Shown in pieces: positions 22,055-41,815 of a stretch of DNA of 64,000 bases. How positions within the stretch are numbered: position 1 is the first letter of the stretch; each line of letters starts with the position of its first letter. The stretch is from Thermodesulfobacteriota bacterium (GTDB lineage Bacteria > Desulfobacterota > Desulfobacteria > Desulfobacterales > SURF-7). The translations under genes were made by a program, and so were the position numbers. The notes under the pieces were generated by a model. The model was not told where the DNA came from. It saw only the letters and a list, made by a program, of their open reading frames with translations, and ran no database searches. The stretch lies in assembly GCA_049320885.1 (NCBI GenBank), contig JBMORA010000063.1, positions 137,737-201,736 on the forward strand. Reading direction: 5' to 3'.

Positions 22055-22628
22055 GGGCCGTCCCTTCCTGTAAAAACATCAGCGCCTGGCTTTCGGTGAT
22101 GTCCACCGATTCCATTTTTTCCAGGGCCTCATAATCCAGCCGGTGCCCGGAGTGAATCCGCAGGCGGTTTTCCCTCAACCCCCTGGCCGCCGCCACGGAG
22201 GAATAGGCCGAGGATCTTCGCCGGGATCGGTCGGAAAACAATTTATATTTATTCAGCAGGGACGTGAAGGCGCCGTATATATCCCGCTTTTTCACCGGCG
22301 GCTTGACCGCCACCTGGAAGGAATAGATCCATCCGGACCGGCCTTGATGGGACACCTGATGCCAGTATTCCGCTTTTTTGAGGCCGGAGATCCGGGTACC
22401 CTGTTTCAGTTCAAACAGCTTTTCGGAACCGGTATCCGGCATCAGGTAGACCTGGGCCTTGACGCTGGCGACATACAGATCGTAAGCATTACACCGGGGC
22501 GGCGGCAACGCCGTCATGGCAGCCACGACCGCAGCCATGAGGATCAATTGGGGATATGCCGCCCCCCCCTTGCGGATTGGCCGGTCATTTTGCCGGTCAT
22601 TTTGCCATTCATTTTGATTGATGCGCAT
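22038..22628 (-). CDS. exported SH3-like domain protein
   Basis: The proposed start is MRINQNEWQNDRQNDRP... at 22628. A hydrophobic segment (LILMAAVVAAMTAL) follows, then an SH3_3-like segment (VKAQVYLMPDTGSEKLFELKQGTRISGLKKAEYWHQVSHQGRSGWIYSF). The track ORF to 22934 would overlap the cyclase gene by about 330 nt. Confidence 0.45.
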   Translation of the reverse strand: MRINQNEWQNDRQNDRPIRKGGAAYPQLILMAAVVAAMTALPPPRCNAYDLYVASVKAQVYLMPDTGSEKLFELKQGTRISGLKKAEYWHQVSHQGRSGWIYSFQVAVKPPVKKRDIYGAFTSLLNKYKLFSDRSRRRSSAYSSVAAARGLRENRLRIHSGHRLDYEALEKMESVDITESQALMFLQEGTAHETHR

Positions 22629-24789
22629 AGAACCCGTCCCAATCCTCCGGCGGAGGATTTTCCAGATAGTGTCGACACCGCGCAATAAAAAGTTCCGCCG
22701 GGACATCCCGGGGACGGAGGGCCCGAATCCGCTCATACGTCGCAATCGCTTCCGGAAACCGACGTTCGCGGTACTGCGAGAACGCCTGCTCGGAAAGCGC
22801 GACCACCGTCCGGAGCTCCGGGTCCACGGAGCCGGTTTCATCCAGAACTTCAAAAATGGCGATGGGTTTTCGCTTGCCCTTGACTTTGACGTAATCCGCC
22901 AGCCGGCAGACGATGCGATCCTTGATCCGGTCATGGGTGTCCTGGCTGACCAGGATGGTGCAGCCGTAGGTCTTGGTAAGGCCTTCCAGCCGCGAGGTCA
23001 GATTGACGCTGTCGCCGATCACCGTATAGTCCAGCTTTTTTTCCGAGCCGATGTTCCCCAGGATCACTTCCCCCGTATGGATCCCGATGCCGATCTTCAG
23101 GGGCGGCATTCCTTCGGCCTCGTTTTCCCGGTTCAGTTCCTCCAGGGCCCGGCGCATCTGCAATGCCGATAGGACCGCCCTGTGAGCGTGATCTTCGATT
23201 TTCACCGGCGCCCCCCAGAAGGCCACAATGGCGTCGCCGATGAATTTATCCAGGGTTCCCTGGTGCTCGAAAATGATGGCCACCATTTTGGACAGGTAAC
23301 GGTTCAGCAGGGCCACCACCATTTCCACCTGGTGGGTTTCGGAAATCGAAGTGAAACCCCGGATATCGGAAAAAAAGACCGTCAGTACTTCCTTGGAGCC
23401 CACCTCGGCCCGGAAATAGTCTTCCTTGTAGTGTTCCAGCACATCCCGGAGCATGGCGGGCGAAACATACTGACCCAGAATATTGCGGATCCGCCTTCTT
23501 TCCCGGCCCTCGGTGGCCATGGTAAAGACAAATCCGGAGATATAAGCCGACAGAAAGGCGACGGATGGCGCCGTTACGTTCATTACCCAGTTCCTTCGGA
23601 ACAGGTACAGACACACCCCGTAAAACAAGGCCATCACCAGAACCGGAACCACCGCCCGCAGGGTAACATTGCGGAAGAACAACACTGCCCACAGCGTCAA
23701 CGCCGCCGCCAACAATACCGTCGGCGCGGTGATGGGAAAAGCGGCAAACCGCAGGAAATCTCCGGTCATGATATTTGCGTAAACCGATGCTTGCAGCATT
23801 ACGCCCGGCAATATCGACCCCAGGGAGGTCATTTTCAGATCCTGGGCGCCCGCGGCGCTGGCACCCACGAAAACGGTTTTGCCCTTGAATTCCTCCGGCC
23901 GGAACGGCAGGTCGGTATGGTTTCCCTGATCCAGTTCCCATTTGGTTTTCAGGACCCCGCTGATGGAAAAGGCCGGGTACCGTCCATATAGATGAAGATA
24001 ATATTCGCCGTCTTTCGTCAGGGGAATGCGAATATCCCCCTCCGCTTTCCGGAGAAACAGATCGCCTTCCCGAAAAAAGGCGCTGCGGCTGCCGGTGTTG
24101 ATCAGAGCGGCTGCCAGTCCCAATGAAGGCAAGCGGTTGCCCCGGTAATCGAACACCAGGGCCTCGCTGCGGAAAACCCCGTCCCGATCCGGCACGAAGG
24201 TGACCACGCCAACACCGGCGGCGTGGGGATACAATTCTTCAAAGGGCAGATAATACTGGTTGAAAGGGATCAGCTCGGCGGCTCCCTCCATGGAAAGGGA
24301 AAAACGTTCGGTGAAATCCCGGGGCAGCGGCTCATTTTGGGTGGAATCCGGGTCATCCATCACCAGCTGGGCCGCATGGAAAACCATGGCCGCTTCCCGG
24401 GTCGACTCCGCCAGACGGCGGTCCGGTTCGCTCAAGCCGTCCGCCGCATCGAGGCCGACCTTCTGGTGCTGGGTGAACAGAATATCCATCACCACGGCCC
24501 GGGCCCCGCAATCCCTCAGGAAATCGATGAGTTCCGCATGGACATCCCGGGGCCACGGCCAGCGGCCCACCAGCGGATCCAGGGCATGCAGGGAGGCGTC
24601 GTCGATCAGGACGATGGCGATATCATCCGGCAGGGGGGTTTCCGACCTTGTCAGCTGCATGCGGAGGTCGATGCTCTTCCGTTCGAGGATATCCAGGAAT
24701 CCCGAACCATCGCCGACCATGGCGAGCAGACTGATCAGCAGGATGATCCAGACGCTTTTCGACAATTTCTGTTGCTGGGGCAACGGCAT
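22609..24789 (-). CDS. CHASE2 sensor domain adenylate/guanylate cyclase (class III) with TPR-like tail
   Basis: CHASE2 signatures are present (GRWPWPRDVHAELIDFLRDCGARAVVMDILF), followed by 3 TM helices. The cyclase core contains TVFFSDIRGFTSISE, GDAIVAFWGAP and GIGIHTGEVILGNIGS. Confidence 0.88.
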   Translation of the reverse strand: MPLPQQQKLSKSVWIILLISLLAMVGDGSGFLDILERKSIDLRMQLTRSETPLPDDIAIVLIDDASLHALDPLVGRWPWPRDVHAELIDFLRDCGARAVVMDILFTQHQKVGLDAADGLSEPDRRLAESTREAAMVFHAAQLVMDDPDSTQNEPLPRDFTERFSLSMEGAAELIPFNQYYLPFEELYPHAAGVGVVTFVPDRDGVFRSEALVFDYRGNRLPSLGLAAALINTGSRSAFFREGDLFLRKAEGDIRIPLTKDGEYYLHLYGRYPAFSISGVLKTKWELDQGNHTDLPFRPEEFKGKTVFVGASAAGAQDLKMTSLGSILPGVMLQASVYANIMTGDFLRFAAFPITAPTVLLAAALTLWAVLFFRNVTLRAVVPVLVMALFYGVCLYLFRRNWVMNVTAPSVAFLSAYISGFVFTMATEGRERRRIRNILGQYVSPAMLRDVLEHYKEDYFRAEVGSKEVLTVFFSDIRGFTSISETHQVEMVVALLNRYLSKMVAIIFEHQGTLDKFIGDAIVAFWGAPVKIEDHAHRAVLSALQMRRALEELNRENEAEGMPPLKIGIGIHTGEVILGNIGSEKKLDYTVIGDSVNLTSRLEGLTKTYGCTILVSQDTHDRIKDRIVCRLADYVKVKGKRKPIAIFEVLDETGSVDPELRTVVALSEQAFSQYRERRFPEAIATYERIRALRPRDVPAELFIARCRHYLENPPPEDWDGFYAHQSK

Positions 24790-26613: not shown

Positions 26614-27537
26614 CTATTGCCCCAGCCAGGCCTCCTTCAGCGCGCCTCTCTCACGCAAGAGGAGTTCGAGATAAACGCATTCCAGAATCACCATTTCCTC
26701 GTCCCCGGCGCGCAGCCACTCCGACAGCCAGGCAAATCGAATGGCCATGACAAGACCGATCAGGTGCCGCATGCCGATCTCCGAGCAGCAGGGAGTGAAT
26801 TCCGCCAGCAGGCTGAGTGTCAGCGGCCCCACCAAGGCGTCGGGAATTTCCATGCCGAGACATCCGATGAGGAGGGCAAGATCATAGAGCTCCGGTTTAT
26901 ACCCGCAGAATTCCCAATCGATGACCGAGACGATCGCTTTTTCCGACCAGATGACATTCAATGGATGATAATCCCCGTGACAAAACACCGTCGGTAGAAG
27001 ATCATGGGCGGCCATGAAAGCCTCCTCGAGATGACAGAGAACCGGATGGAGCCGGGTCTGGAGATCGGGGCGGTGGTCCGCCAGCCGCTGCATGAGGCTG
27101 TAAATAAAGTCCTTGATGGAAAAAGGCGCCCCCTGACTGGAATGGGGAATGCTTCGCCCTCTGGTATGAAAATCTTTTAAAAACCCCGCCAGGGCGACTC
27201 CCCGCCAAGCCTCGAAAGCATAATCCGGCCGTTTCAGGGCCCCGCCTTCGATATACGGCCGGGCCAGCCAGAACCGGCCGGCGGTTTCATGGACAAATCC
27301 TCCCTCCCGGGACCGGCGATACGGATGAATCCTCCCGAGTCCGGCACCGGAAAGATGCGCCAGCACCCCTGCCATCTCCCGTTTCCGCATGAGGCAGTCC
27401 CCCGCGATCTCCTCCAACACCAGCCGTTCTCCTGCCTGGGTTTCCACCACGGAACGCCACAGGCAGCGCTCGGGACTGCCCGCCAAGTCCAGATCATGCC
27501 GCACTTTCTTCAGCGCGGCCCCCCAGCCGCCCGTCAT
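26614..27537 (-). CDS. phosphotransferase (APH/choline kinase-like) family protein
   Basis: It has the kinase catalytic motif FCHGDYHPLNVIW and the metal-binding motif IDWEF. The ATG at 27537 follows GGAGGGG. The track's GTG at 27594 would extend into the repeat. Confidence 0.7.
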   Translation of the reverse strand: MTGGWGAALKKVRHDLDLAGSPERCLWRSVVETQAGERLVLEEIAGDCLMRKREMAGVLAHLSGAGLGRIHPYRRSREGGFVHETAGRFWLARPYIEGGALKRPDYAFEAWRGVALAGFLKDFHTRGRSIPHSSQGAPFSIKDFIYSLMQRLADHRPDLQTRLHPVLCHLEEAFMAAHDLLPTVFCHGDYHPLNVIWSEKAIVSVIDWEFCGYKPELYDLALLIGCLGMEIPDALVGPLTLSLLAEFTPCCSEIGMRHLIGLVMAIRFAWLSEWLRAGDEEMVILECVYLELLLRERGALKEAWLGQ

Positions 27538-27588
27538 AATCCCCTCCAACAGACGCTCCCGGCAGTCCGATGTCACCCCTTCACTTCT

Positions 27589-27800
27589 TCCCACTCTCTT
27601 TCAATCCAAGGACATGATTCCAGTCGACAGTGAAAAAACCTATCCATATCAGTTTGTTGACGTATTTTATTTCTTGACATGCCCGGTTGGCTCGCCTAAG
27701 CTCACTCTGGGACCCAAAGGGCCACCACGAAGAATTTGAAATCCAGGATACCGGAAACGGAAGCCGGAAGCAATTCCAAATTCCAGCTTCGGAGCCACTT
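27589..27800 (+). repeat. duplicated leader element, copy 1 (upstream of P-type ATPase)
   Basis: It is a direct repeat of 30717-30937. The core 27633-27770 differs from copy 2 at about 5 positions in my manual alignment. The flanks are much more diverged. Confidence 0.9.
27674..27702 (+). promoter_or_regulatory. sigma70-like promoter inside leader copy 1
   Basis: TTGACA (27674-27679), a 17-nt spacer, then TAAGCT (27697-27702). The same hexamers and spacing occur in copy 2. Confidence 0.4.
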
Positions 27801-27805
27801 CAACA

Positions 27806-27925
27806 ATCTTATTCCGCCATAAGGCCGATGTAAACATCCGGGCCCTCCGGGGAAAAACCGCGCTCACCAGGTCCCCGGGCATCGGGGCCCTGGGGCTGGC
27901 CCAATGGCAGATAGAGGAAAACCAT
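27806..27925 (+). pseudogene. remnant of an ankyrin-repeat gene (paralogous to 32244-32356)
   Basis: It is about 80% identical by manual alignment to an internal part of the ankyrin gene. It translates as ILFRHKADVNIRALRGKTALTRSPGIGALGLAQW, compared with ILFRHKADLNIRDPRGKTALIKSLESGALELARW. It lies in the same frame as the ATPase ORF, with the nearest upstream stop at 27737. Confidence 0.7.
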
Positions 27926-27964
27926 TTGGAAAAACAATTCGGAACCGGCCAGCAGAAGGATGGT

Positions 27965-30670
27965 ATGAACTGGCATTTAATGGAAACCGCCGCCGCATTG
28001 GCTGAACTTCAGTCCAGTGACCAAAACGGCTTGGACGCAACGGAAGCCCGGGACCGGCAAGGCCGATCCGGTTATAATGAGCTGATCGAAAAAGGCGCCC
28101 GTTCGCCGTGGCGCATTTTCTGGGAACAGATCACCGCCACCATGGTCCTGATCCTGCTGGCCGCAGCCGTTGCCGCAGGCTTCCTGGGAGACACCAAAAA
28201 CGCCGTGGCCATCACCGCCATTGTCGTCCTCTTCACCATTCTGGGTTTTTTTCAGGAATACCGCGCCGAGAAAGCCATCGCTTCCCTCAAGCGCATGTCC
28301 ACACCGAATGTGCGGGTCATCCGGGACGGCATCCTCATGGAAATTCCCGCAAGAGAGCTTGTGCCGGGCGACATCATCGCCCTGGAAGCCGGCAACGTGG
28401 TTCCAGCGGATGTCCGCTTGACCGAAGCGGTGAACCTGCGCATCCAGGAAGCGGCGCTGACGGGCGAATCCGAACCCATTGAGAAGCAGACCGCAGCCCT
28501 TGCCGGCGATGATCTGCCGTTGGGGGATCGCCGCAACATGGCCTACATGGGAACGATTGTCACCCAAGGCCGCGGACGTGCGCTGGTGGTGGCCACGGGC
28601 ATGCAGACGGAACTCGGGAAAATCGCCAACCTGATTCAGCGCTCCGCCACCGAGCAGACGCCGCTGCAGCGCCGCCTCGATCAATTGGGAAACCAGCTGG
28701 CCGTCATCGGCGGCGTCATCGCCCTGCTCATTTTTGGGCTAGGGATTTGGCGCGGCGACGACGTCCGTCACATGCTGCTGACGGCCATTTCGGTGGCGGT
28801 CGCCATCATTCCGGAAGGCCTGCCGGCCGTCGTCACCATCACCCTGGCCCTCGGCGCTCAGCGCATGTTGCGCCACCATGCCTTGATTCGCAAGCTGCCG
28901 GCCGTGGAAACCCTCGGTTCGGTTACCGTCATCTGTTCCGACAAAACCGGCACGCTGACGGAGAACAGAATGACCGTCGTGGTGCTGGATGTCGCCGGGC
29001 ACGAGATCGATTTGACCGAGGACATGAAAAAAGACTCGGTTCGGCTCATGCAGAACACCGGGATTCCTTCGCCATCGCCGCTTTCCCTGCTGGCCGTCGG
29101 CGGCGTGCTGTGCAACGACGCCCGGCTGGTGATGGACGGGGACGACAAATATCACACCATCGGCGATCCCACGGAAGGCGCCCTGATCGCTGCGGCCGCC
29201 CGGCTGGGATACTGGAAATCCTCCCTGGATGCCGATTTTCCCCGCGTGGCGGAATTGCCCTTCGACTCGGATCGCAAACGCATGACCACGGTTCATCGTC
29301 TGCAGGCCGAACGTCTTCACGCCCTCACCGGCTGGAATCCGGATCATGGGGAAGGCATCGCCTTCGTCAAGGGCAGCGTGGACGGCCTGCTGGGAATTTC
29401 CAGCCGCATCGAGGCGCAGGGTACGCCGCAGCCCATGGACGATGGCTGGCGGACGCACATTCAAACCGCCAACGAGCGTCTCGCCCGCAAAGGCATGCGG
29501 GTTCTCGGCCTTGCCTATCGCCTGGTGGATCCCGTCGCGGATGTCCGGCAGGACGACCTGGAGCGCGATCTCGTTTTCGTGGGCCTCTTCGGCATGATCG
29601 ATCCGCCGCGGCCGGAAGTGCGCGAAGCCGTGCGCGTCACCCGGACAGCCGGGATCCGGACGGTCATGATCACCGGCGACCACCCGCTGACCGCCCTGGA
29701 GATCGCCCGGCAACTGGGGATTTCCGAAAACGGCCGCGCACTGACGGGCAAGGACATCGACAGTCTACCGTTTGACAACCTGAAAAGCGTGCTGGAGGAT
29801 GTCTGCGTCTTCGCGCGTGTCTCGCCGGAGCATAAACTGACGATTGTCCAGGCGCTGCAGGAAAAAGGTCACATCGTATCCATGACCGGTGACGGCGTCA
29901 ACGACGCACCGGCCCTGCGGAAAGCCGACATCGGGGTGGCCATGGGGATAACCGGCACGGATGTGTCCAAGGAAGCCGCCGACATGGTCCTCATGGACGA
30001 CAATTTCGCGACCATCGTCGCCGCCGTGAAGGAGGGACGCACCATTTATGACAATATCCGCAAGTTCGTCCGCTTTTCAGTGGCCGGAAACATCGGCAAG
30101 GTGTTGGTCATGCTGCTGGCGCCGTTTCTAGGCAAGCCCGTTCCGCTGCTTCCGCTGCAGCTCTTATGGCTGAACCTTATGACCGACGGACTGCTGGGTC
30201 TGGGTCTGGGGGTGGAGCCGGCGGAAAAAGACACCATGAACAGACCGCCGTACTCGCCGCAGGAGGGGGTTTTCAATCGCGGCGCCGGCATGCAGACTGC
30301 ACTGAACGGCCTGATGATCGGCGGCATGGCGCTGGCGGTGGGCGCCTGGTATTATTTCCGCGGACACGCCAATTGGCAGACCATGGTTTTCACCTCGCTG
30401 ACGTTTGTCCAGATCGCGCAGGCCCTCGCTTCCCGTTCCAGCGGTGAGTCCCTGTTCCGGATCGGTATCCGCTCCAATCCATTGATGCTGGGGATGATCC
30501 TGGCCGTGGTCGTCCTGCAGCTGCTGGTGATCTATGTGCCGCCGTTGCAGACGATTTTCAACACCGTGCCCCTGGCCCCCATGGATCTGGGAATCACCGC
30601 GGGCATCGGCGTGCTATTTCTGGTCATGACCGAGGTCCAGAAGGTCCGCCGCAAATCGTCGAAGCCGTGA
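27965..30670 (+). CDS. cation-translocating P-type ATPase (type II, Ca2+/SERCA-like)
   Basis: P-type motifs are present: LTGESEP, ICSDKTGTLT, MITGDH, TGDGVNDAPAL, IPEGLPAVVT and NLMTDGL. The ATG at 27965 (MNWHLMETAAALAEL) fits the usual N-terminus. The track start is a TTG at 27926. Confidence 0.88.
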   Translation: MNWHLMETAAALAELQSSDQNGLDATEARDRQGRSGYNELIEKGARSPWRIFWEQITATMVLILLAAAVAAGFLGDTKNAVAITAIVVLFTILGFFQEYRAEKAIASLKRMSTPNVRVIRDGILMEIPARELVPGDIIALEAGNVVPADVRLTEAVNLRIQEAALTGESEPIEKQTAALAGDDLPLGDRRNMAYMGTIVTQGRGRALVVATGMQTELGKIANLIQRSATEQTPLQRRLDQLGNQLAVIGGVIALLIFGLGIWRGDDVRHMLLTAISVAVAIIPEGLPAVVTITLALGAQRMLRHHALIRKLPAVETLGSVTVICSDKTGTLTENRMTVVVLDVAGHEIDLTEDMKKDSVRLMQNTGIPSPSPLSLLAVGGVLCNDARLVMDGDDKYHTIGDPTEGALIAAAARLGYWKSSLDADFPRVAELPFDSDRKRMTTVHRLQAERLHALTGWNPDHGEGIAFVKGSVDGLLGISSRIEAQGTPQPMDDGWRTHIQTANERLARKGMRVLGLAYRLVDPVADVRQDDLERDLVFVGLFGMIDPPRPEVREAVRVTRTAGIRTVMITGDHPLTALEIARQLGISENGRALTGKDIDSLPFDNLKSVLEDVCVFARVSPEHKLTIVQALQEKGHIVSMTGDGVNDAPALRKADIGVAMGITGTDVSKEAADMVLMDDNFATIVAAVKEGRTIYDNIRKFVRFSVAGNIGKVLVMLLAPFLGKPVPLLPLQLLWLNLMTDGLLGLGLGVEPAEKDTMNRPPYSPQEGVFNRGAGMQTALNGLMIGGMALAVGAWYYFRGHANWQTMVFTSLTFVQIAQALASRSSGESLFRIGIRSNPLMLGMILAVVVLQLLVIYVPPLQTIFNTVPLAPMDLGITAGIGVLFLVMTEVQKVRRKSSKP

Positions 30671-30801
30671 TAAATCCGGCTTGAGAATACAATATTGGGC
30701 CAATAGGTGGTTATCATTCCACTCTCTTTCAAGCACGGATAGCATCCCGGCCGACAGTAAAAAAAACCTATCCATATCAGTTTGTTGACGTATTTTATTT
30801 C

Positions 30802-30830
30802 TTGACATGCCCGGTTGGTTCGCCTAAGCT
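30802..30830 (+). promoter_or_regulatory. sigma70-like promoter inside leader copy 2
   Basis: TTGACA (30802-30807), a 17-nt spacer, then TAAGCT (30825-30830). Confidence 0.4.
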
Positions 30831-30878
30831 CGCTCCGTAACCCAAAGGGCCACCACGAAGAATTTGAAATCCAGGATA

Positions 30879-30930
30879 CCGGAAACGGAAGCCGGAAGGC
30901 ATTCCGAATTCCGGCTTCGGAATGCCTTCC
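30879..30930 (+). promoter_or_regulatory. perfect 15-bp stem-loop with competing upstream pairing (candidate expression platform)
   Basis: GGAAGGCATTCCGAA (30894-30908), loop TTCCGGC, then TTCGGAATGCCTTCC (30916-30930). The loop TTCCGGC is also the exact complement of GCCGGAA at 30891-30897. No U-tract follows. In copy 1 the stem is degenerate. Confidence 0.5.
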
Positions 30931-30968
30931 ACTGGAAGCAGTGACCCAAAAACCCAAGGTATCGCCGT

Positions 30969-32582
30969 TTGACTCCGGAAAGCGCCAAAGAAAAAACCTA
31001 CACCCGCCAAGCCGCAGTGCTCACCCTCACGTCCATGGCCTCCACCGGCATCCTTCTGCTGTTTTACGCCGTAGGCCCCCAATCCGGCATGGAAGCGCTT
31101 GTGCTGATCGTCCCTTGGTTCCTATCCCTGATCGTTCATCTGGTGCTGACGGTACCGGCCCTGATCTTCGCCTGGAAAAGCCGGGCACACCTGAGACTAT
31201 CCTGGATCTATACCTATTTCCTCCTTTTCTGGGGTCTGACAGGCTGGTATCTTGTGCTTGCGAACAACATCGACATCCTCATCGCCAGGCAGTTCGATAC
31301 CTGGCAGCATCCCGGGGAAGCGGATTTGTTCAACGACCTGGAACAGCTGCGAATGGCGGCGCTCCAGCGGCATCCCCTGGATCCGGCCGTGCTGGACCGG
31401 ACAAAAAAACTTATCCGGAACGGGGCCGATGTCAACCACCGGCAGCCGGGCAGCCGTCGCTCCCTGCTGGCGGAGGCAGCGGCCATCGGTGATTCGGACC
31501 TGGTGGCGGCAATGATTGCCGCGGGAGCCGAAATCCAGGGGAATGAAGCCGAGGGGGCTGACCCGCTCATGGAGGCGGTTCGTAATCGGCATGCAACGGT
31601 AACCCGGATGTTGCTAAAATACGGTGCAAACCCCGAACATGCCCGTTATGCCGCGGAAACGCCCCTGATAACCGCCGTCCGGAATCAAGACCCGGAAACC
31701 GTTGGCTACCTCCTGGAAGGCGGCGCCCTGCCGGACCACCACCCGGAGAGCGGTCTTCCGGCCTTGCAGATCGCGGCCGTCAACGGGGATGCCGTCACCG
31801 TCCGCTTGCTGGTGGATGCCGGCGCCGACCCGCACCGGAGCCTTTTCGGGAGTTCCACGGCCATGATCCGGGCCGTGGAAGCGGACTGCAGCGCCTGTGT
31901 CCGCATCCTTCTGGATGCCGGGGCCGGATTCTCGGGTAAAACCGGTGACGGCGACGGCCCCCTGGCCCTGGCTTTCAAACGCCACCGGCCGGATATGACA
32001 GCGGTCATTCTGAATGCCGGGCAGGACCGGCTTCATGCCCCGACCCGCTTCGGAACCGATGCGTACAACGACATGTTCGCCGCCATCCGCAAGACGGACC
32101 GGGAGGCCCTGGAATTCTATCTGCAGGCCGGAGTTCCCCCGGATCTCCTGGATGCCAACCGCCAGACACTGCTCCTGGATCTGGCCGGACGACAATACCA
32201 GCGGCCGGAGATATCCCCGGAATCGGAGGTGGCGGCCGCGGAAATCCTGTTCCGCCATAAGGCCGACCTGAACATCCGGGACCCCCGGGGAAAAACCGCG
32301 CTCATCAAGTCCCTGGAATCCGGCGCCCTGGAACTGGCCCGATGGCTGATTGAAAACGGCGCGGATGTGAATGCAGCCGCGGAGGAAGGGGTGACGGCCC
32401 TGCATACGGCTGTCTGGCACGGACATGAGCGCCTGGCTCTGACGCTCATGGACGCCGGTGCGGATGTCAATGCCCGGACCCGCATGGGGATGAACAGCGA
32501 AACGCCGCTGGAAGCCGCCATGAAAAAAGGAACCCCCGGTCTGGTCGCCCGTATGCGCAAAGTCGGGTCTGCTGGCATTTAA
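30969..32582 (+). CDS. membrane-anchored ankyrin-repeat protein
   Basis: About 4 N-terminal hydrophobic helices are followed by at least 10 ANK-like repeats. Recurrent motifs include GADVNHRQ, GANPEH, GALPDH, GADPHR and GVTALHTAVWHGHERLALTLMDAGADVNA. The start is uncertain: TTG at 30969 in the track, or ATG at 31035. Confidence 0.75.
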   Translation: MTPESAKEKTYTRQAAVLTLTSMASTGILLLFYAVGPQSGMEALVLIVPWFLSLIVHLVLTVPALIFAWKSRAHLRLSWIYTYFLLFWGLTGWYLVLANNIDILIARQFDTWQHPGEADLFNDLEQLRMAALQRHPLDPAVLDRTKKLIRNGADVNHRQPGSRRSLLAEAAAIGDSDLVAAMIAAGAEIQGNEAEGADPLMEAVRNRHATVTRMLLKYGANPEHARYAAETPLITAVRNQDPETVGYLLEGGALPDHHPESGLPALQIAAVNGDAVTVRLLVDAGADPHRSLFGSSTAMIRAVEADCSACVRILLDAGAGFSGKTGDGDGPLALAFKRHRPDMTAVILNAGQDRLHAPTRFGTDAYNDMFAAIRKTDREALEFYLQAGVPPDLLDANRQTLLLDLAGRQYQRPEISPESEVAAAEILFRHKADLNIRDPRGKTALIKSLESGALELARWLIENGADVNAAAEEGVTALHTAVWHGHERLALTLMDAGADVNARTRMGMNSETPLEAAMKKGTPGLVARMRKVGSAGI

Positions 32583-32595
32583 AAAGGAAGCAGTT

Positions 32596-34077
32596 GTGAG
32601 GATCAAGAAACCATTGAGATCCGCGAATCCCGGAAATGATCTTTTCAGAGCAGCCGAAAGATATATGCGGCATCCTCAACATGCAACCACGGGCCCGTCA
32701 TCAGCAGGCAGTTGGCTGCAGCATCTTCGGAAAAATCCGACCCGCTTGCTCGTAGGCTGTTTTGCCGCGGCCATTCTGGCGGGCGGAGTACTACTCAGCC
32801 TGCCTTGTTCAGCGTCCGGAAAACGAATCAGCTTACTGGACGCGGTCTTCACGGCCACAAGCGCAGTATGCGTAACCGGCCTCACGGTTTGCGATACAGG
32901 GAAAGAGTATTCGACCTTCGGACATGCCGTGATCTTGCTGCTGATCCAGTTGGGCGGGTTGGGGATCACCACGCTGTCGACAGCCCTGTTCATGCTCTTC
33001 GGCCAGCAGGCCTCCCTGTCTACGAACGATGCCGTGGAGGGCAGCTTTCTCGCGCGTCCCAAGGGCAGACTGAAACCCTTGTTGATCCAGGTATTCCTTT
33101 GGACCATCACAATCGAGACCATCGGCGCGGCGGCGCTGCTGCCGGCGGAACTCGGCCGCCTGCCGGTGTTGCAGGCCGTCTGGAACGCGATGTTTCATGC
33201 CGTAAGCGCCTTCTGCAACGCCGGTTTCTCGCTCCGGTCTGACAATCTGATGAGCGCGCGTTCCAGTGCCGCCACTATCCTACCCATCGCCGGTTTGATC
33301 ATCCTCGGGGGATTGGGATTCGGCGTATTGACGGAGATAACCGGAAATCTTTGGAACCGGGTCCGCGGACGGCAAGCGATACGGCTCTCCCTGCAAGCCA
33401 AAACAGTCCTGACGACCACCGGTCTTCTGTTGCTGGCCGGAACCCTCGGTTTCTGGATTCTGGAAAATGGCAATCTGCTTCACGGCAACAATCTGTCGAG
33501 TCGGTTTCTGACCAGTTTTTTTGCTTCGGTCACACCGCGAACCGCGGGCTTCAACTCCATCGATTACGGTCAAGCCACAACCGCCACAATTTTCTTTACC
33601 ATGCTGCTGATGGCCATTGGTGGCGCTCCGGGGTCAACGGCCGGAGGAATCAAGGTCACCACCCTGGCCGTGCTGTTCGCTTTAGCCCGCGGGCGGTTGC
33701 ACGGCAGGCGCTTTGTGAATCTTTTCGGCCGCGGCATTCCTGAAATGGCTGTGGACAAAGCGTTTGCCGTCGTCGCCTTGTTGACAATCCTGGTGGCCGG
33801 AGGGACGCTGCTGTTAGCCGCCGTCGGATTCAGCCATATGCCCCACGTCCAGACACCTGGACAACCGGTGGGTCTGCTGTTTGAAGTGATCTCGGCCCTA
33901 TGCACCGTGGGTCTGAGTACGGGGATCACGCCGACCCTGGCGGCAGGGGGTAAAATCATCGTCATTCTGCTGATGTTTGTCGGGCGCCTCGGACCGCTGA
34001 CCATCGCGGTGGCCATCGCCAGACAGTCGCCGGCAGCCAGTGTGCGTTTGGCCGAGGAGCCGATCATGATCGGTTGA
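32596..34077 (+). CDS. trkH: TrkH/KtrB-family potassium transporter membrane subunit
   Basis: It is a multi-TM protein with repeated selectivity-filter-like segments (TGLTVCDT, NAGFSL, RTAGFNSID, TVGLSTG). The GTG at 32596 follows AAGGAAG. Confidence 0.85.
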   Translation: MRIKKPLRSANPGNDLFRAAERYMRHPQHATTGPSSAGSWLQHLRKNPTRLLVGCFAAAILAGGVLLSLPCSASGKRISLLDAVFTATSAVCVTGLTVCDTGKEYSTFGHAVILLLIQLGGLGITTLSTALFMLFGQQASLSTNDAVEGSFLARPKGRLKPLLIQVFLWTITIETIGAAALLPAELGRLPVLQAVWNAMFHAVSAFCNAGFSLRSDNLMSARSSAATILPIAGLIILGGLGFGVLTEITGNLWNRVRGRQAIRLSLQAKTVLTTTGLLLLAGTLGFWILENGNLLHGNNLSSRFLTSFFASVTPRTAGFNSIDYGQATTATIFFTMLLMAIGGAPGSTAGGIKVTTLAVLFALARGRLHGRRFVNLFGRGIPEMAVDKAFAVVALLTILVAGGTLLLAAVGFSHMPHVQTPGQPVGLLFEVISALCTVGLSTGITPTLAAGGKIIVILLMFVGRLGPLTIAVAIARQSPAASVRLAEEPIMIG

Positions 34078-34121
34078 TGAATTCCGGCAACCCGATTTTC
34101 ATAACATGGAGGAAAACTCGA

Positions 34122-34790
34122 ATGAAAGGAAAAACCCGTGTCGCCGTGCTTGGCCTGGGAGATTTCGGCTATCACTTCGCCTGCGAACTCTACAAGTTAG
34201 GCCACGAAGTGCTGGCCGTGGACAGCAATGAGGACAAGGTGCAGCAAATTCTGGTCAACGCCACCAAAGCGGCTGTGGCCGACGTCGGTGACCGCTCGGC
34301 GCTGGAAGAGCTGGGCATCGCCGGCTTCGATATCGTGGCCGTTTGCCTCCCCGAGAAGCTGGAAACAACCGTGTTGTTGGTGCATTACCTCCACCAAGTG
34401 TATAACGCGCCCCAGATTCTGGTCAAGGTGGCCAACCAGGAACAGGCCGCGATTGTCAAACTGGTGGGAGCCGACGAGGTCATTCTGCCGGATCAGAGCG
34501 CGGCCCGGAAAGCAGCCATGATGATTCATCATCCCCGGGCCGTGGACTATCTGGAACTGGGCGGGGGGTACATGGTCGTCGCCGGCCACCCCCCTTCCAG
34601 CGCAATCGGGAAGGCGGCAAAAACCTGGTCCTCGCTGGAACACCTCGGCGTCAGCCTGCTGGGGGTTTGGCAATCCAACCCAGATGGCCCACCCCGGCCG
34701 CCGGCGCCCGACCAAGTCATCGCCGAAACCGATATTCTGCTCATAGCCGGGCATCTCGACCGCCTTCGCGAACTGAGGAGGTTGAAATAA
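34122..34790 (+). CDS. trkA: TrkA/KtrA-type RCK (NAD-binding) regulatory subunit
   Basis: It has a Rossmann motif (VAVLGLGDFGYHFA) and a C-terminal RCK_C-like part. The ATG at 34122 follows GGAGGA. Confidence 0.8.
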   Translation: MKGKTRVAVLGLGDFGYHFACELYKLGHEVLAVDSNEDKVQQILVNATKAAVADVGDRSALEELGIAGFDIVAVCLPEKLETTVLLVHYLHQVYNAPQILVKVANQEQAAIVKLVGADEVILPDQSAARKAAMMIHHPRAVDYLELGGGYMVVAGHPPSSAIGKAAKTWSSLEHLGVSLLGVWQSNPDGPPRPPAPDQVIAETDILLIAGHLDRLRELRRLK

Positions 34791-37972: not shown

Positions 37973-38836
37973 ATGAGCGACAAGGCTCACAGCTTTCTTA
38001 AGAAATTTAATAATCTGAAGACCTTGCCGCATGTCGCCATCCGTCTGACACAACTCATCGCCGATGAAAGGACAACCGTTCGCGAACTGGAAGAAATCAT
38101 TCGCCTCGACCCCACCCTCGTTCTGCGCCTGCTGCGGATGGTGAACAGCCCGTATTACGGTCTTCGCCAAAAAGTCGGCAGCATTGCCGAAGCCGTCACG
38201 TTTCTGGGCATCGACAATCTGAGGAATATTGTCGTGGTGGAAGCCATGAAGGATATTTTCAAGTCCGGCCGGCAAGATCACCGCTTTTCCTTCAGCAAGC
38301 TGTGGCTGCACAGCGCCGTTGTCGCCATCTGCTGCCAGATGGTGGCGGAACGCGTTTTCCGGCAGAAGGGTGAAAATGCCTTTCTCTGTGGAATATTGCA
38401 TGATATCGGTTTGATCGCCGCGGCCCAGGTGGAACCGGACCTTTTTTTCCAAATCTGGGAGCATGATATACCGGATTCAGGAACCATGATCGCGCGGGAA
38501 AGGGAAACCCTGGGCACGGACCACTGCGACCTGGGCTACCATTTGACCGGAGAATGGAAAATTGCGGCGCCGGTACGCGAGGGAATCCGTCAACATCATA
38601 ATTCCGAGCGGAAGCTCTCGGCTTCGGACATCGGCGGTATCCTGCAGATCTCCGAATACCTCTCCTCCCGGCTGGAGTACACCATGATTCCCGGCCTGCG
38701 GCCGGGCCTCCCCCAAATCCTGCTTCAGCATTTGCGGGAGAACATCATGGAATACCGGGTTATTACGGGAGATCTGCCTGAGGAAATCGCCAAGGCCAGG
38801 GAAATGTATCAATCGCCGGAGGAACCGCAGCCATGA
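37973..38836 (+). CDS. HDOD domain protein
   Basis: HDOD pattern: [62 protein letters not shown] and LHDIG. Confidence 0.85.
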
Positions 38837-41070
38837 TGCCAGCGAATGATATTCTCAGCGAGCTCGAAGATCGGGACGACTTCCCCAGGCGCTTCCTCCA
38901 TTATATGGAAACCCGAATGCCCGATACTTGTTTTTTCATCGAAACCGCCGACGGCGGTTCTTTCGCTTCCCCGAACGCCCCGCCGGACATGGCAGCCCGG
39001 TGGGAGAAAATGCGAAGGAATGTCATCCTTCCAAAAAATCCGGCAACAATCCCGGGACCCGGTGATTCATTCATCGGCGTAATACCGGTTGACGCATTCA
39101 ATGGCTTTCTGTTTTTTTCCTGCTCGGGCGACTCGCCCATTGCCAGGAGCCTGGAAAACCGGTTGGTTGAATTGTATTTGGAGCATTTTTTTACCCGAAA
39201 GGAACTCGGCGACGAAAAAGAACGGTTGCAGTATGCCAAGAAACAGTATGAACGCCAGCATGAGGTCATGCAGTCCAAATACCGCGATCTCCTGGAAGAA
39301 AATCAAAACAACTTCAACATGATACAGGAGAAAGAACGGAATTACGCCCAGAAGCTGAAACTGGAAATCGACCACCAGACCGCCGAACTCCGCCGGGCCA
39401 ACAAGCAACTGGAAGAGGCCATCGCCCATGCCAATTTGATGACGGAAAAGGCGGAATCCGCCAGCAGAAGTAAAAGCGATTTTCTGGCCAACATGAGCCA
39501 TGAGATCCGGACGCCCATGAACGGCGTCATCGGCCTGACCTCCCTCCTCCTGGAGACGGTTCTTGATGAAAAGCAACGTCTCTACGCCTCCCGCATCTTG
39601 GGCAGCGCCGAAGCCCTGCTGGCCATTATCAACGACATTCTCGACATTTCCAAAATCGAGGCCGGAAAACTTGTCCTGGAAAAAACCGACTTCAATCTAA
39701 GTCTGGTTTTGAAAGATCTGAATGAACTATTTGCCATGAGCGCCAAAGCTAAGGGACTGCAATACAGTTGTTATTTGCATCCGCACGTCCCTGTGAATCT
39801 GATGGGAGATCCTGTCAGACTGCGCCAGATATTGACCAATCTGGTGGGCAATGCCGTCAAGTTCACCACGGAAGGAAGTGTTTCCGTTCAGGTCGTTTTG
39901 GAAAGTGAAGACGATCGCCAGGCCCTGCTTCGATTCTCTGTGGCTGATACGGGAATCGGCATTCCCAAGGATAAGCAAGAAATCATTTTCCGGAAATTCA
40001 CCCAGGTGGATACTTCCATCACCAGAAAATTTGGTGGTACGGGGCTGGGTCTTTCCATCGTCAAACAGCTTTGTGAAATGATGTCCGGCAATGTCTGGAT
40101 CGAGCCGGAAAAGACAACGGGGGCGACCTTCCGCTTTACGGCGTTGTTTGAAAAACAGTCTGCAGATAAATTCCTTCAAAGCAAGGGGATCGACGGAACG
40201 TGGTCCCCGCCCATTCAGGAGCGACAAAAGCGCGCCGTCCGGATCCTGCTGGCGGAAGACGATGAAACCAACCGGATTGTGGCGCTTGAATTACTCAAGG
40301 CGGCGGGCTATGCGGCGGATGTGGCGGAAAACGGCAGGGAGGCATTGGAAGCACTTGCAAATAGAGACTATGACCTTGTATTAATGGATATCCAGATGCC
40401 GGAGATGGATGGGATCACGGCGACCAGGCAGATCCGTGAGTGGGAAGAGTTGCGGATGAAGCAGGAGGAATCAGACCCGAATCATTCGACCCGGGATGAA
40501 AAAAACCGGCATCACCATCGACCCGCCAGGATTCCCATCATCGCCATGACGGCCCAGGCCATGAAAGAAGACCGGAAGCGCTGCCTCGAATCCGGGATGG
40601 ACGATTATATCACCAAACCCATCCATCGCAGCGAATTGGAGGCGGCCATCAAGCGCCGACTCTTTGATGAAACATCCGTTCGGCAGGCGCTGCCCCTTGA
40701 AACGGGATTATCCGAATCCACCAATTGCCGCACCGGTTTCGACTATCACGAAATGTCGACGCGGCTGCAGATCAACCAAGGCACGGCCAAAAAATTACTG
40801 GGAACGTACATTACCGTAATTCCAAAATATTTCGACCAATTAACCAATTCATTGGCCACAGGGGATCGCGAAACCTTCACGCGCATCTCCCATTCCATCA
40901 AAGGGGCGTCCGCGAACTACGGCATCTCCGGCATGCAAAAAATCGCACAGGAAATGGAGTCCGCCGGGAGAGCAGAAAACATGGAAAAAGCGGCCGCCAT
41001 GCTCCCCGTGCTTACGAAAGAATTCGAAACCGTGAAAACAGTTCTTGAAAATTTTATTCAAAGCCCCTGA
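38833..41070 (+). CDS. hybrid sensor histidine kinase (HisKA-HATPase-REC-Hpt)
   Basis: It has an H-box ([15 protein letters not shown]), an N/G-box ([13 protein letters not shown]), a REC domain ([14 protein letters not shown]) and a C-terminal Hpt ([11 protein letters not shown]). Its ATG overlaps the HDOD stop as ATGA. Confidence 0.88.
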
Positions 41071-41122
41071 CAGGTTCATGGGGGAAGATCGGGAAACTTA
41101 ATGTCCGGAGAGGAGAATCGCC

Positions 41123-41815
41123 ATGCAACAACTGCAATCCATGAAAATCACGATCATCGACGATGACCTGATGAGCATCGAGTTGATGAGATCGATATTG
41201 GAAGAAAACGGATTCACCGATATCCGGGCCTTCTCCTCCGCGCCGGAAGCACTTGAAGCCATCCAGGCCCATCGGCCCGATCTGGTGCTGCTGGATATCG
41301 TCATGCCTGAAATGGACGGATTCACCTTTTGCAAATGCCTGCGGGAAAAAGAACCCATGCGCCACCTTCCGGTCATCATGATTTCCGGGGCAGGCCTGGA
41401 AGCGGATGAGACCATCCGCAAAACCTTTGAAGTCGGCTCGACGGATTTCATCTTCAAACCCATCCGCGCCGTGGATTTTCTGGCCCGCGTGCGCTCGGCC
41501 CTGACCCTCAAGCAAGCCTATGACGGCATGGAGGCGGAACTCGTCAAACGCCGGGAGGCTGAAAAAGAACAGCAGCGGCTCATCGAGGAATTGCGGGCCG
41601 CGCTGGCAAAAGTGAAAACCCTCAGCGGTTTTCTGCCCATCTGTTCGGCCTGCAAAAAAATCCGGGACGACAAGGGGTACTGGAAACAGATCGAAAATTA
41701 CATCTGCGAGCATTCGGAGGCCGAATTCAGCCACAGCATCTGCCCGGAATGCGCCCGCAAGCGCTATCCGGAATTCAACCTGTACGGCGAAACCGCTAAG
41801 CCGGCAGGCGGATAA
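41123..41815 (+). CDS. response regulator: REC + coiled coil + Cys-rich C-terminal module
   Basis: The REC domain contains DLVLLDIVMPEMDGF. The C-terminus is LPICSACKKIRDDKGYWKQIENYICEHSEAEFSHSICPECARKRYPE (CxxC...H...CPxC). Confidence 0.85.
   Translation: MQQLQSMKITIIDDDLMSIELMRSILEENGFTDIRAFSSAPEALEAIQAHRPDLVLLDIVMPEMDGFTFCKCLREKEPMRHLPVIMISGAGLEADETIRKTFEVGSTDFIFKPIRAVDFLARVRSALTLKQAYDGMEAELVKRREAEKEQQRLIEELRAALAKVKTLSGFLPICSACKKIRDDKGYWKQIENYICEHSEAEFSHSICPECARKRYPEFNLYGETAKPAGG

Follow-up and report, generated by a model that had tools for sequence, protein, structure and literature searches.

Two direct copies of a promoter and leader segment, hereafter copies A and B, are present in the 64,000-nt stretch of contig JBMORA010000063.1 (Thermodesulfobacteriota; assembly GCA_049320885.1) that was analysed here and that is called the window throughout. 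Copy A precedes a P-type cation ATPase gene, and copy B precedes a gene encoding a membrane protein with ankyrin repeats (ank), itself followed by trkH and trkA. The nature of this feature is most likely ordinary, namely a duplicated promoter/leader cassette. We favour, with slightly better than even confidence, the view that the cassette comprises a sigma-70-type promoter and the first 60 or so transcribed bases, that the ATPase gene came under its control by promoter capture, and that its core has been held by selection, with gene conversion probably helping. The transcript start, the co-regulation of the two units, the respective parts of selection and conversion and the order of events are all inferred from the sequence.

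The repeat is genuine and is not a chance match. Its two copies, offset by 3,128 bp, flank a single ATPase gene, and the repeat search delimits a direct repeat of 172 nt (27633-27804 versus 30761-30932, 92% identity), whose homology is extended to the left, up to 27589/30717, by the MAFFT alignment. A direct duplication of about 210 bp around the ATPase gene, with sharply non-uniform identity, had been claimed in an earlier reading of the letters (the original prediction), and both points are confirmed. Identity is distributed as a mosaic (Table 1), complete over 59 of 59 positions in one block as compared with 66-74% in the flanks of the core overall. From left to right, the conserved Block 0 is followed by about 30 nt of only ~66% identity (MAFFT, left flank), and then by a 138-nt core (27633-27770), in which the alignment reveals exactly five mismatches, that is 133/138 identical positions, where about five had been counted before. 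This core starts with the invariant Block 1. The first mismatch (27691) is a C/T difference located inside the promoter spacer and is followed by 12 identical nucleotides, TAAGCT included; the other four (27704, 27708, 27710 and 27711) make up the variable patch, beyond which Block 2 is again invariant. The last 60 nt or so of the core had been said to be identical: the identity is indeed complete, over 59 nt rather than 60. The window contains exactly two occurrences of the 59-mer of Block 2, none being expected in shuffled sequences, and the sub-blocks, searched with up to three mismatches, have no third copy in the window. The repeat is also confirmed in reads: a Logan contig (L001, SRR32167788) starts at position 30869 and takes in exactly the last 30 nt of the 59-nt block, which is the k-1 overhang expected where a k=31 graph meets a repeat.

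In agreement with the original prediction, TTGACA-N17-TAAGCT is found in both copies, and each of them has -35 and -10 hexamers at a distance within the 16-18 nt that characterise sigma-70-type promoters. The core plausibly holds a sigma-70 promoter, from which transcription would start at about 27709 in copy A and 30837 in copy B. Block 2, which had been claimed to be the 5' end of both mRNAs, does begin where such a transcript should start. The four clustered mismatches coincide with the discriminator and start region, and the -10 hexamer is unchanged within that zone. Comparable sequences, TTGACA-N18-TAGCCT (L018) and TTGACA-N18-TACGCT (L019), lie directly upstream of the trkH genes of relatives whose TrkH proteins show 79% amino-acid identity; since these trkH promoters display it, TAnnCT appears to be a usual form of the -10 box in this lineage.

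Within Block 1 are TTGACG and TTGACA, 17 nt apart, A- and T-tracts, the larger part of the promoter spacer and a sequence that agrees perfectly with the IHF core consensus WATCARNNNNTTR (Table 1); this consensus pattern has four matches in 64 kb, with 2.6 expected, and the IHF-like site is to be taken as a lead rather than as evidence. A sigma-54 promoter (GG-N10-GC, TGGCAC-N5-TTGC) was considered and rejected, as the spacing in TTGGCTCGCCTAAGC is GG-N9-GC and its -12 element is poor. Flanking the core promoter is an imperfect, AT-rich inverted repeat, TATTTTATTTCTT (27664-27676) and AAGAATTTGAAAT (27730-27742), with one arm in each invariant block. These arms, which RNAfold pairs in a fold no better than that of shuffled sequences, could be two protein-binding half-sites.

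The history of the cassette can be approached through the sequence that adjoins copy A, a 111-nt remnant of the ank gene. The original prediction had put its identity to the source at about 80%; a diverged remnant is indeed there, with an identity of 82% (91/111) by repeat search. Its reading frame, which is open and the same as that of the ATPase gene, translates to ILFRHKADVNIR...GALGLAQWQIEEN, the counterpart of ank residues ~425-462. Next come 49 unrelated nucleotides with a GAAGGA Shine-Dalgarno sequence, and then the ATPase ATG. Because the leader joins an ank remnant, the copied unit would have consisted of promoter, leader and ank gene, and because this remnant adjoins copy A, a segmental duplication is indicated rather than the insertion of an element.

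We therefore envisage a tandem duplication of a segment that carried the promoter and leader along with the 5' part of the ank gene. The ank copy would then have lost most of its length by deletion, the 111-nt remnant staying in place, and this deletion would have brought the P2A-type ATPase gene closely behind the ank-trkHA promoter. Microhomology at the deletion junction is not resolvable after the later divergence. The ATPase gene and ank-trkH-trkA would be transcribed from the same promoter, each from its own copy, and would therefore answer to the same regulators, so that promoter capture would have led to co-regulated K+ uptake and cation export. What has been retained, presumably by purifying selection, would be the AT-rich upstream element with its IHF-like site, the -35 box, the spacer, the -10 box and the initial transcribed region, gene conversion between the copies probably assisting. 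As for the ATPase, Chloroflexota, Zhuqueibacterota and other phyla have proteins that share 70-75% identity with it, and the scattering of its nearest relatives across several phyla suggests that it was horizontally acquired. The single ATPase relative whose locus was fetched (75% identity) is found in an unrelated gene context.

The neutral parts of the duplication are 18-34% diverged between the copies, the lower divergence of the remnant being due to its comparison with a constrained gene. At a neutral divergence of 18-30%, the probability of observing no mismatch in 59 nt is 8e-6 to 7e-10. Identity at 59 of 59 positions being so improbable, selection or conversion must act on the core, as the original prediction had claimed for the leader. 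The five core mismatches all lie within 21 nt, and the probability of a span of 21 nt or less under a uniform distribution is 0.0016, if they are independent. This clustering speaks for selection. So do the division of the identity into separate blocks (Block 0, Block 1, the -10 box and Block 2) and the position of the variable patch, which is the one place where a promoter tolerates change.

Concerted evolution alone could also be responsible, although we regard this as a distinctly weaker, if serious, possibility. The promoter would then be functional, the near-identical 135-nt core would result from conversion, strongest in the middle of the 216-nt segment, and Block 2 would be the mere start of a 5' untranslated region. 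Such a process would account for perfect blocks of 58 and 59 nt that include positions needed neither by an operator nor by an aptamer; conversion with homologous flanks also predicts a core in the middle of the shared segment, and 27633-27770 does lie centrally in the contiguous homology 27589-27804. In addition, three of the five mismatches are inside 4 nt and are possibly one event, and neither the dyads nor the RNA folding of the core rise above controls. However, the mosaic demands at least two or three conversion tracts, the mismatch patch falls precisely in the gap that separates the -10 box from Block 2, and the -10 hexamer is intact within the variable zone. Furthermore, conversion needs seeds of perfect identity, which the diverged flanks (66-82%) no longer supply, and the core would therefore have been kept alike all along.

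Several of our results weigh against a promoter captured by the ATPase gene and held mainly by selection. The identity at all 117 positions of Blocks 1 and 2 (58 + 59) exceeds what purifying selection usually leaves on a promoter or operator, and when 27708, 27710 and 27711 are counted as one event, the clustering probability becomes about 0.07, by our own estimate. Dyads and repeats of the kind expected in an operator are not more frequent in the blocks than in Markov-simulated sequences. The -10 hexamer TAAGCT matches the E. coli consensus TATAAT at only 3/6 positions, keeping TA...T, which is too little to reach the cut-off of the promoter scan. The GC content of the ATPase gene resembles that of its neighbours, the horizontal origin being suggested and not proven. 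Finally, conversion may be the main cause of the identity, with Block 2 having no function of its own. Selection and conversion probably both act, and two sequences cannot separate them.

Table 1. Window coordinates of the duplicated segment, its sub-features and the surrounding genes.
Feature	Position	Strand	Basis or remark
Copy A, promoter and leader, 5' of the ATPase gene	27589..27804	+	repeat search, MAFFT
Copy B, 5' of ank-trkH-trkA	30717..30932	+	repeat search, MAFFT
Block 0, conserved left end, 15/16 identical to 30717-30732	27589..27604	+	MAFFT of left flank
Block 1, 58 nt identical to 30761-30818, AT-rich	27633..27690	+	repeat search, alignment
IHF-like consensus match TATCAGTTTGTTG, about -62 to -50 from the putative start	27647..27659; also 30775..30787	+	consensus match only
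-35 box TTGACA, 6/6 consensus	27674..27679; copy B 30802..30807	+	motif search
-10 box TAAGCT, spacer 17, same in both copies	27697..27702; copy B 30825..30830	+	motif search
Variable patch, 4 mismatches in 8 nt, at the putative transcript start	27704..27711; copy B 30832..30839	+	
Block 2, copy A, 59 nt, 100% identical to copy B	27712..27770	+	purine-rich, three CGGAA units, no significant fold
Block 2, copy B	30840..30898	+	exact 59-mer match
Diverged tail, copy A, 25/34 identical to copy B	27771..27804	+	alignment
Perfect 15-bp hairpin, copy B only, without U-tail	30894..30930	+	folding, terminator scan
Ankyrin-gene remnant, 111 nt, 82% identical (91/111) to 32243-32353	27805..27915	+	repeat search
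APH-family kinase, divergent, abuts copy A	26614..27594	-	Pfam/NCBIfam/PDB
P2A-type cation ATPase (LMCA1/SPCA/PMR1-like)	27965..30670	+	Pfam/NCBIfam/PDB
Membrane protein with ankyrin repeats (ank), MFZ5573213.1	30969..32582	+	Pfam/NCBIfam/PDB
TrkH, GTG start, AAGGAAG Shine-Dalgarno, 13 nt past the ank stop	32596..34077	+	
TrkA/KtrA-like, single-RCK subunit	34074..34790	+	Pfam/NCBIfam/PDB

The original prediction also saw in the shared leader a structured, cis-regulatory RNA, and this part of it is not supported. Rfam 15 was searched with the whole window at gathering score, with 3.8 kb at E<=10, and with each copy alone at E<=10 with lax filters. At gathering score the whole window has no match. 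At E<=10 nothing relevant was obtained: the matches are far below threshold and almost all concern eukaryotic models (microRNA, small nucleolar RNA or long non-coding RNA), the others being the actinobacterial small RNA Ms_AS-4 and the cis-regulatory COG3860 RNA, which matches outside the repeat (30933-31009) with 11.1 bits as compared with a gathering score of 42.5. The check that had been proposed for the ydaO/cyclic di-AMP (c-di-AMP), Na+, Li+, Mn2+ and Mg2+ classes is thereby done, none of the Rfam 15 models for these classes giving a match.

Folding was done on each strand for Block 2, for the core and for the full leader of each copy. Compared with shuffled sequences, Block 2 (z = -1.0) and the 135-nt core (z = +0.3 to +1.4, both strands) fold no better. 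The sole significant structure is the copy-B hairpin (z = -3.9 for 30839-30940), which has no second occurrence in the 64-kb window and hence is not like a repetitive extragenic palindrome (REP). Copy A keeps 10 of its 15 pairs, with no compensatory change (pairs counted by reading). Just 3' of it lies a 5-bp hairpin, CACUG-GAAG-CAGUG (window 30894-30941). When both copies are submitted to RNAalifold, 0 of 22 consensus pairs is compensatory, two sequences having little power to reveal covariation. The terminator scan finds no terminator-like site on the + strand of either leader, and copy A has no terminator-like or Shine-Dalgarno-sequestering feature. Thus neither of the two hallmarks of a riboswitch was found, be it an expression platform (a terminator or a helix sequestering the Shine-Dalgarno sequence) or a stable aptamer fold supported by covariation, for which two sequences only were at hand.

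A riboswitch, or another leader sensing an ion or a second messenger, made of Block 2 with or without the downstream hairpin and common to two cation-transport units, is very unlikely on these grounds. It would explain why the invariant block begins just 3' of the putative start and why both downstream units are concerned with cation transport, and copy B does offer mutually exclusive helices, the 15-bp hairpin competing with a 10-bp helix GAAGCCGGAA / UUCCGGCUUC; the enrichment of GGA/CGGAA motifs described below could also be invoked. Yet, besides the lack of a relevant model, of a significant fold in Block 2 or the core and of a conserved hairpin, an RNA function fails for Block 1, which lies 5' of the putative start and is just as invariant. 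Moreover, no like leader is found upstream of related trkH genes (74-79% identity), of the ATPase relative (75%) or of ank orthologues (51-56%), and the wider searches given below are without homologue.

Block 2 most likely acts as DNA, being an operator or a nucleoprotein footprint 3' of the transcript start, or as an unstructured, purine-rich 5' untranslated region bound by a protein or a small RNA, and is unlikely to be a folded ligand-binding aptamer. It contains three CGGAA units, 6-7 nt apart, and GGA/CGGAA motifs are 2-3 times more frequent in it than in the window background. Its short dyads, ATTTGAAAT and ATCCAGGAT, are unable to form RNA hairpins and are not above chance. Two coding explanations were tried and rejected. 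A TTG-started open reading frame of 26/28 codons is present in both copies, with mostly amino-acid-changing differences in its non-identical part and a poor Shine-Dalgarno sequence; in either copy the same minus-strand frame runs open through Block 2, without the synonymous differences that coding constraint would leave. We also consider, as a rather improbable option, that Block 2, with or without Block 1, is an undescribed, lineage-specific regulatory element coupling K+ uptake to Ca2+-type cation export. This could possibly be (i) an unstructured 5' leader with CGGAA repeats, recognised at each base by an RNA-binding protein or by an antisense or small RNA, or (ii) an extended operator across the transcript start. 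If true, one ionic or second-messenger signal would serve both units, and this would explain the retention of all 59 bases.

The leader was then sought outside the window. The loci of ank orthologues (L002-L004) gave no leader match with blastn or with nhmmer --max and a two-copy profile, and no leader was found at the loci of the ATPase relative (L017) and of the TrkH relatives (L018-L023) with nhmmer --max and by reading the upstream regions, the best E-value at L017-L023 being 0.14, within a gene. An exact 20-mer scan of 185,579 species-representative genomes, a set that excludes the source metagenome-assembled genome (MAG), returned 12 matches, all by chance and with no extended similarity. 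In the JGI metagenomes, a Block-2 26-mer had no match and a Block-1 20-mer four chance matches; three seed patterns had no match in viral contigs, and distant blastn found no homologue in plasmid and phage records. Exact seeds (12- to 26-mers) detect near-identical copies only, and the closest sampled relatives are distant. The negative seed scans hence indicate that the element is not widespread, and have no bearing on a lack of function.

These loci nevertheless inform on the gene arrangement. Orthologues of ank are 51-56% identical and relatives of trkHA 74-79% identical, and the two are never adjacent to each other; in the TrkH relatives, trkH-trkA stands directly behind a short upstream region of its own, with no ank gene. 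Since ank and trkHA never adjoin in relatives, the ank-trkHA arrangement is, as judged from these loci, lineage-specific. The ank orthologues of relatives are longer (685-725 amino acids as compared with 537). One of their loci (L002; GCA_041740615.1, 1138-5479) retains the neighbourhood of the window from ank to an enoyl-CoA hydratase gene, and has, 5' of ank, a very AT-rich region of 650 nt without similarity to the leader.

A mobile or dispersed element, such as a miniature inverted-repeat transposable element (MITE), a REP-like sequence or a mobile promoter, or else a pair of direct repeats with a structural role in excision or amplification of the ATPase cassette, is the least probable of the explanations weighed here. 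The two perfect stretches of at least 58 bp, 3,128 bp apart around an acquired-looking gene, would fit it, and so would the break of the Logan contig 30 nt inside Block 2, which is repeat-like behaviour in a k=31 graph. The original prediction had itself named a generic many-copy repeat as the observation that would count against it, and the window holds two copies only, even when sub-blocks are allowed three mismatches. A MITE or REP-like dispersed repeat was rejected given these two copies in 64 kb and the lack of a terminal inverted repeat at either of them in the repeat search. Nothing was found in the viral, plasmid and phage collections, and the ank remnant marks a segmental duplication, not an insertion. 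It is plausible that the direct repeats lead to excision or amplification of the ATPase gene, as homologous recombination between perfect direct repeats of 58-59 bp would easily delete or amplify it. Such recombination is nonetheless a likely side effect and is not evidence of a function.

Gene identities were established by Pfam, NCBIfam and PDB comparison and uphold those that had been claimed (P-type ATPase, ankyrin protein and trkHA). The best solved relatives of the ATPase are Listeria LMCA1 and human SPCA1, and its best NCBIfam model, of the PMR1 type, is below cut-off. Proteins of the window are on record as MFZ5573212, MFZ5573213 and MFZ5573214 (Thermodesulfobacteriota MAG), and the exact ATPase product is not on record, in either its 901- or its 914-amino-acid version. 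The NCBI start of the ATPase is TTG 27926 (914 amino acids), just past the recognisable end of the remnant at 27915. ATG 27965 is the likelier start, as homologues have 895-909 amino acids, the N-terminal domain begins there and a GAAGGA Shine-Dalgarno sequence precedes it.

An ank-trkH-trkA operon is plausible from the 13-nt gap between ank and trkH, together with the Shine-Dalgarno sequence of the latter. The start of TrkH is called differently by NCBI (443 amino acids), by Logan (470) and by the longest open reading frame (493, from GTG 32596), and in alignments conservation with relatives begins at about residue 36-40 of the long form. According to which start is the real one, the gap measures between 13 and ~160 nt, and a promoter of the TTGACA type is not to be seen in it (window 32583-32750). 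Between the ATPase stop and the ank start, no terminator-like site is found on the + strand, and read-through out of the ATPase gene into ank would be possible. On the minus strand, a promoter-like TTTACA-N17-TAAGAT (9/12) lies inside the ankyrin remnant (window 27834-27806) and faces through copy A toward the APH-kinase gene; if active, it would produce an RNA antisense to leader A. Signalling genes are located nearby, at 22609-24789 (-) and 37973-41815 (+), and encode a CHASE2-adenylate/guanylate cyclase, an HDOD protein, a hybrid histidine kinase with Hpt and a stand-alone receiver. No DNA-binding regulator was found among the larger neighbouring open reading frames scanned in 14702-43195 (~13 kb upstream and ~12 kb downstream).

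If capture of the duplicated promoter by the ATPase gene is what happened, the locus would be a natural example of how a newly acquired transporter can be wired into an existing circuit by promoter copying and gene trimming, with the relic of the trimmed gene still recognisable next to the captured promoter. This reading predicts that a Ca2+-type ATPase and Trk K+ uptake are co-expressed in an uncultured Thermodesulfobacteriota lineage. No new class of RNA sensor is opened at present.

Riboswitches of the ydaO/kimA (c-di-AMP), DUF1646 motif (Na+), nhaA-I (Li+), yybP-ykoY (Mn2+) and M-box (Mg2+) classes precede transporter genes. The cassette resembles them in that a conserved leader precedes genes for K+ uptake and for a P-type ATPase. 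It differs from them on several counts: it has no covariance-model match of relevance, does not fold significantly, shows no covariation, lacks an expression platform in copy A and has no homologue found outside this genome. The enterobacterial tufA/tufB genes exemplify short duplicates within one genome that evolve in concert through gene conversion. Near-identity in one part of an otherwise diverged duplication is common to both; here, in contrast, it concerns ~135 bp of non-coding sequence and is interrupted by a mismatch patch at the putative transcript start.

Closer parallels are offered by the reuse and the capture of promoters. A commentary (PMC3575422) on promoter reuse and the putative mobile promoters of Matus-Garcia, Nijveen & van Passel (2012) describes more than 4,000 families of highly similar upstream regions before unrelated genes, selection or recent duplication being left open. 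The families were defined by at least 80% identity over at least 50 nt 5' of non-homologous genes within one genome (PMC3575422), and our core reaches 133/138 identical positions before the ATPase and ankyrin genes. It departs from that definition in that paralogous coding sequence, the 111-nt ank remnant, follows copy A, and in its position: the published screen covered -150 to -50, and the core lies at -332 to -195 (ATPase) and -208 to -71 (ank) from the start codons. Its promoter would also have moved within a segmental duplication and not on its own. Promoter capture via tandem duplication or deletion is known to activate horizontally transferred genes (Li & Bock 2019, PMC6614815; PMC11111574). 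The published events are laboratory ones caught at once, whereas the present one is old (18-34% neutral divergence), with an order of events and a foreign origin of the ATPase that are deduced only. The elements are nevertheless alike in both cases: a duplicated promoter, a trimmed intervening gene and, here, a foreign-looking ATPase behind a resident promoter.

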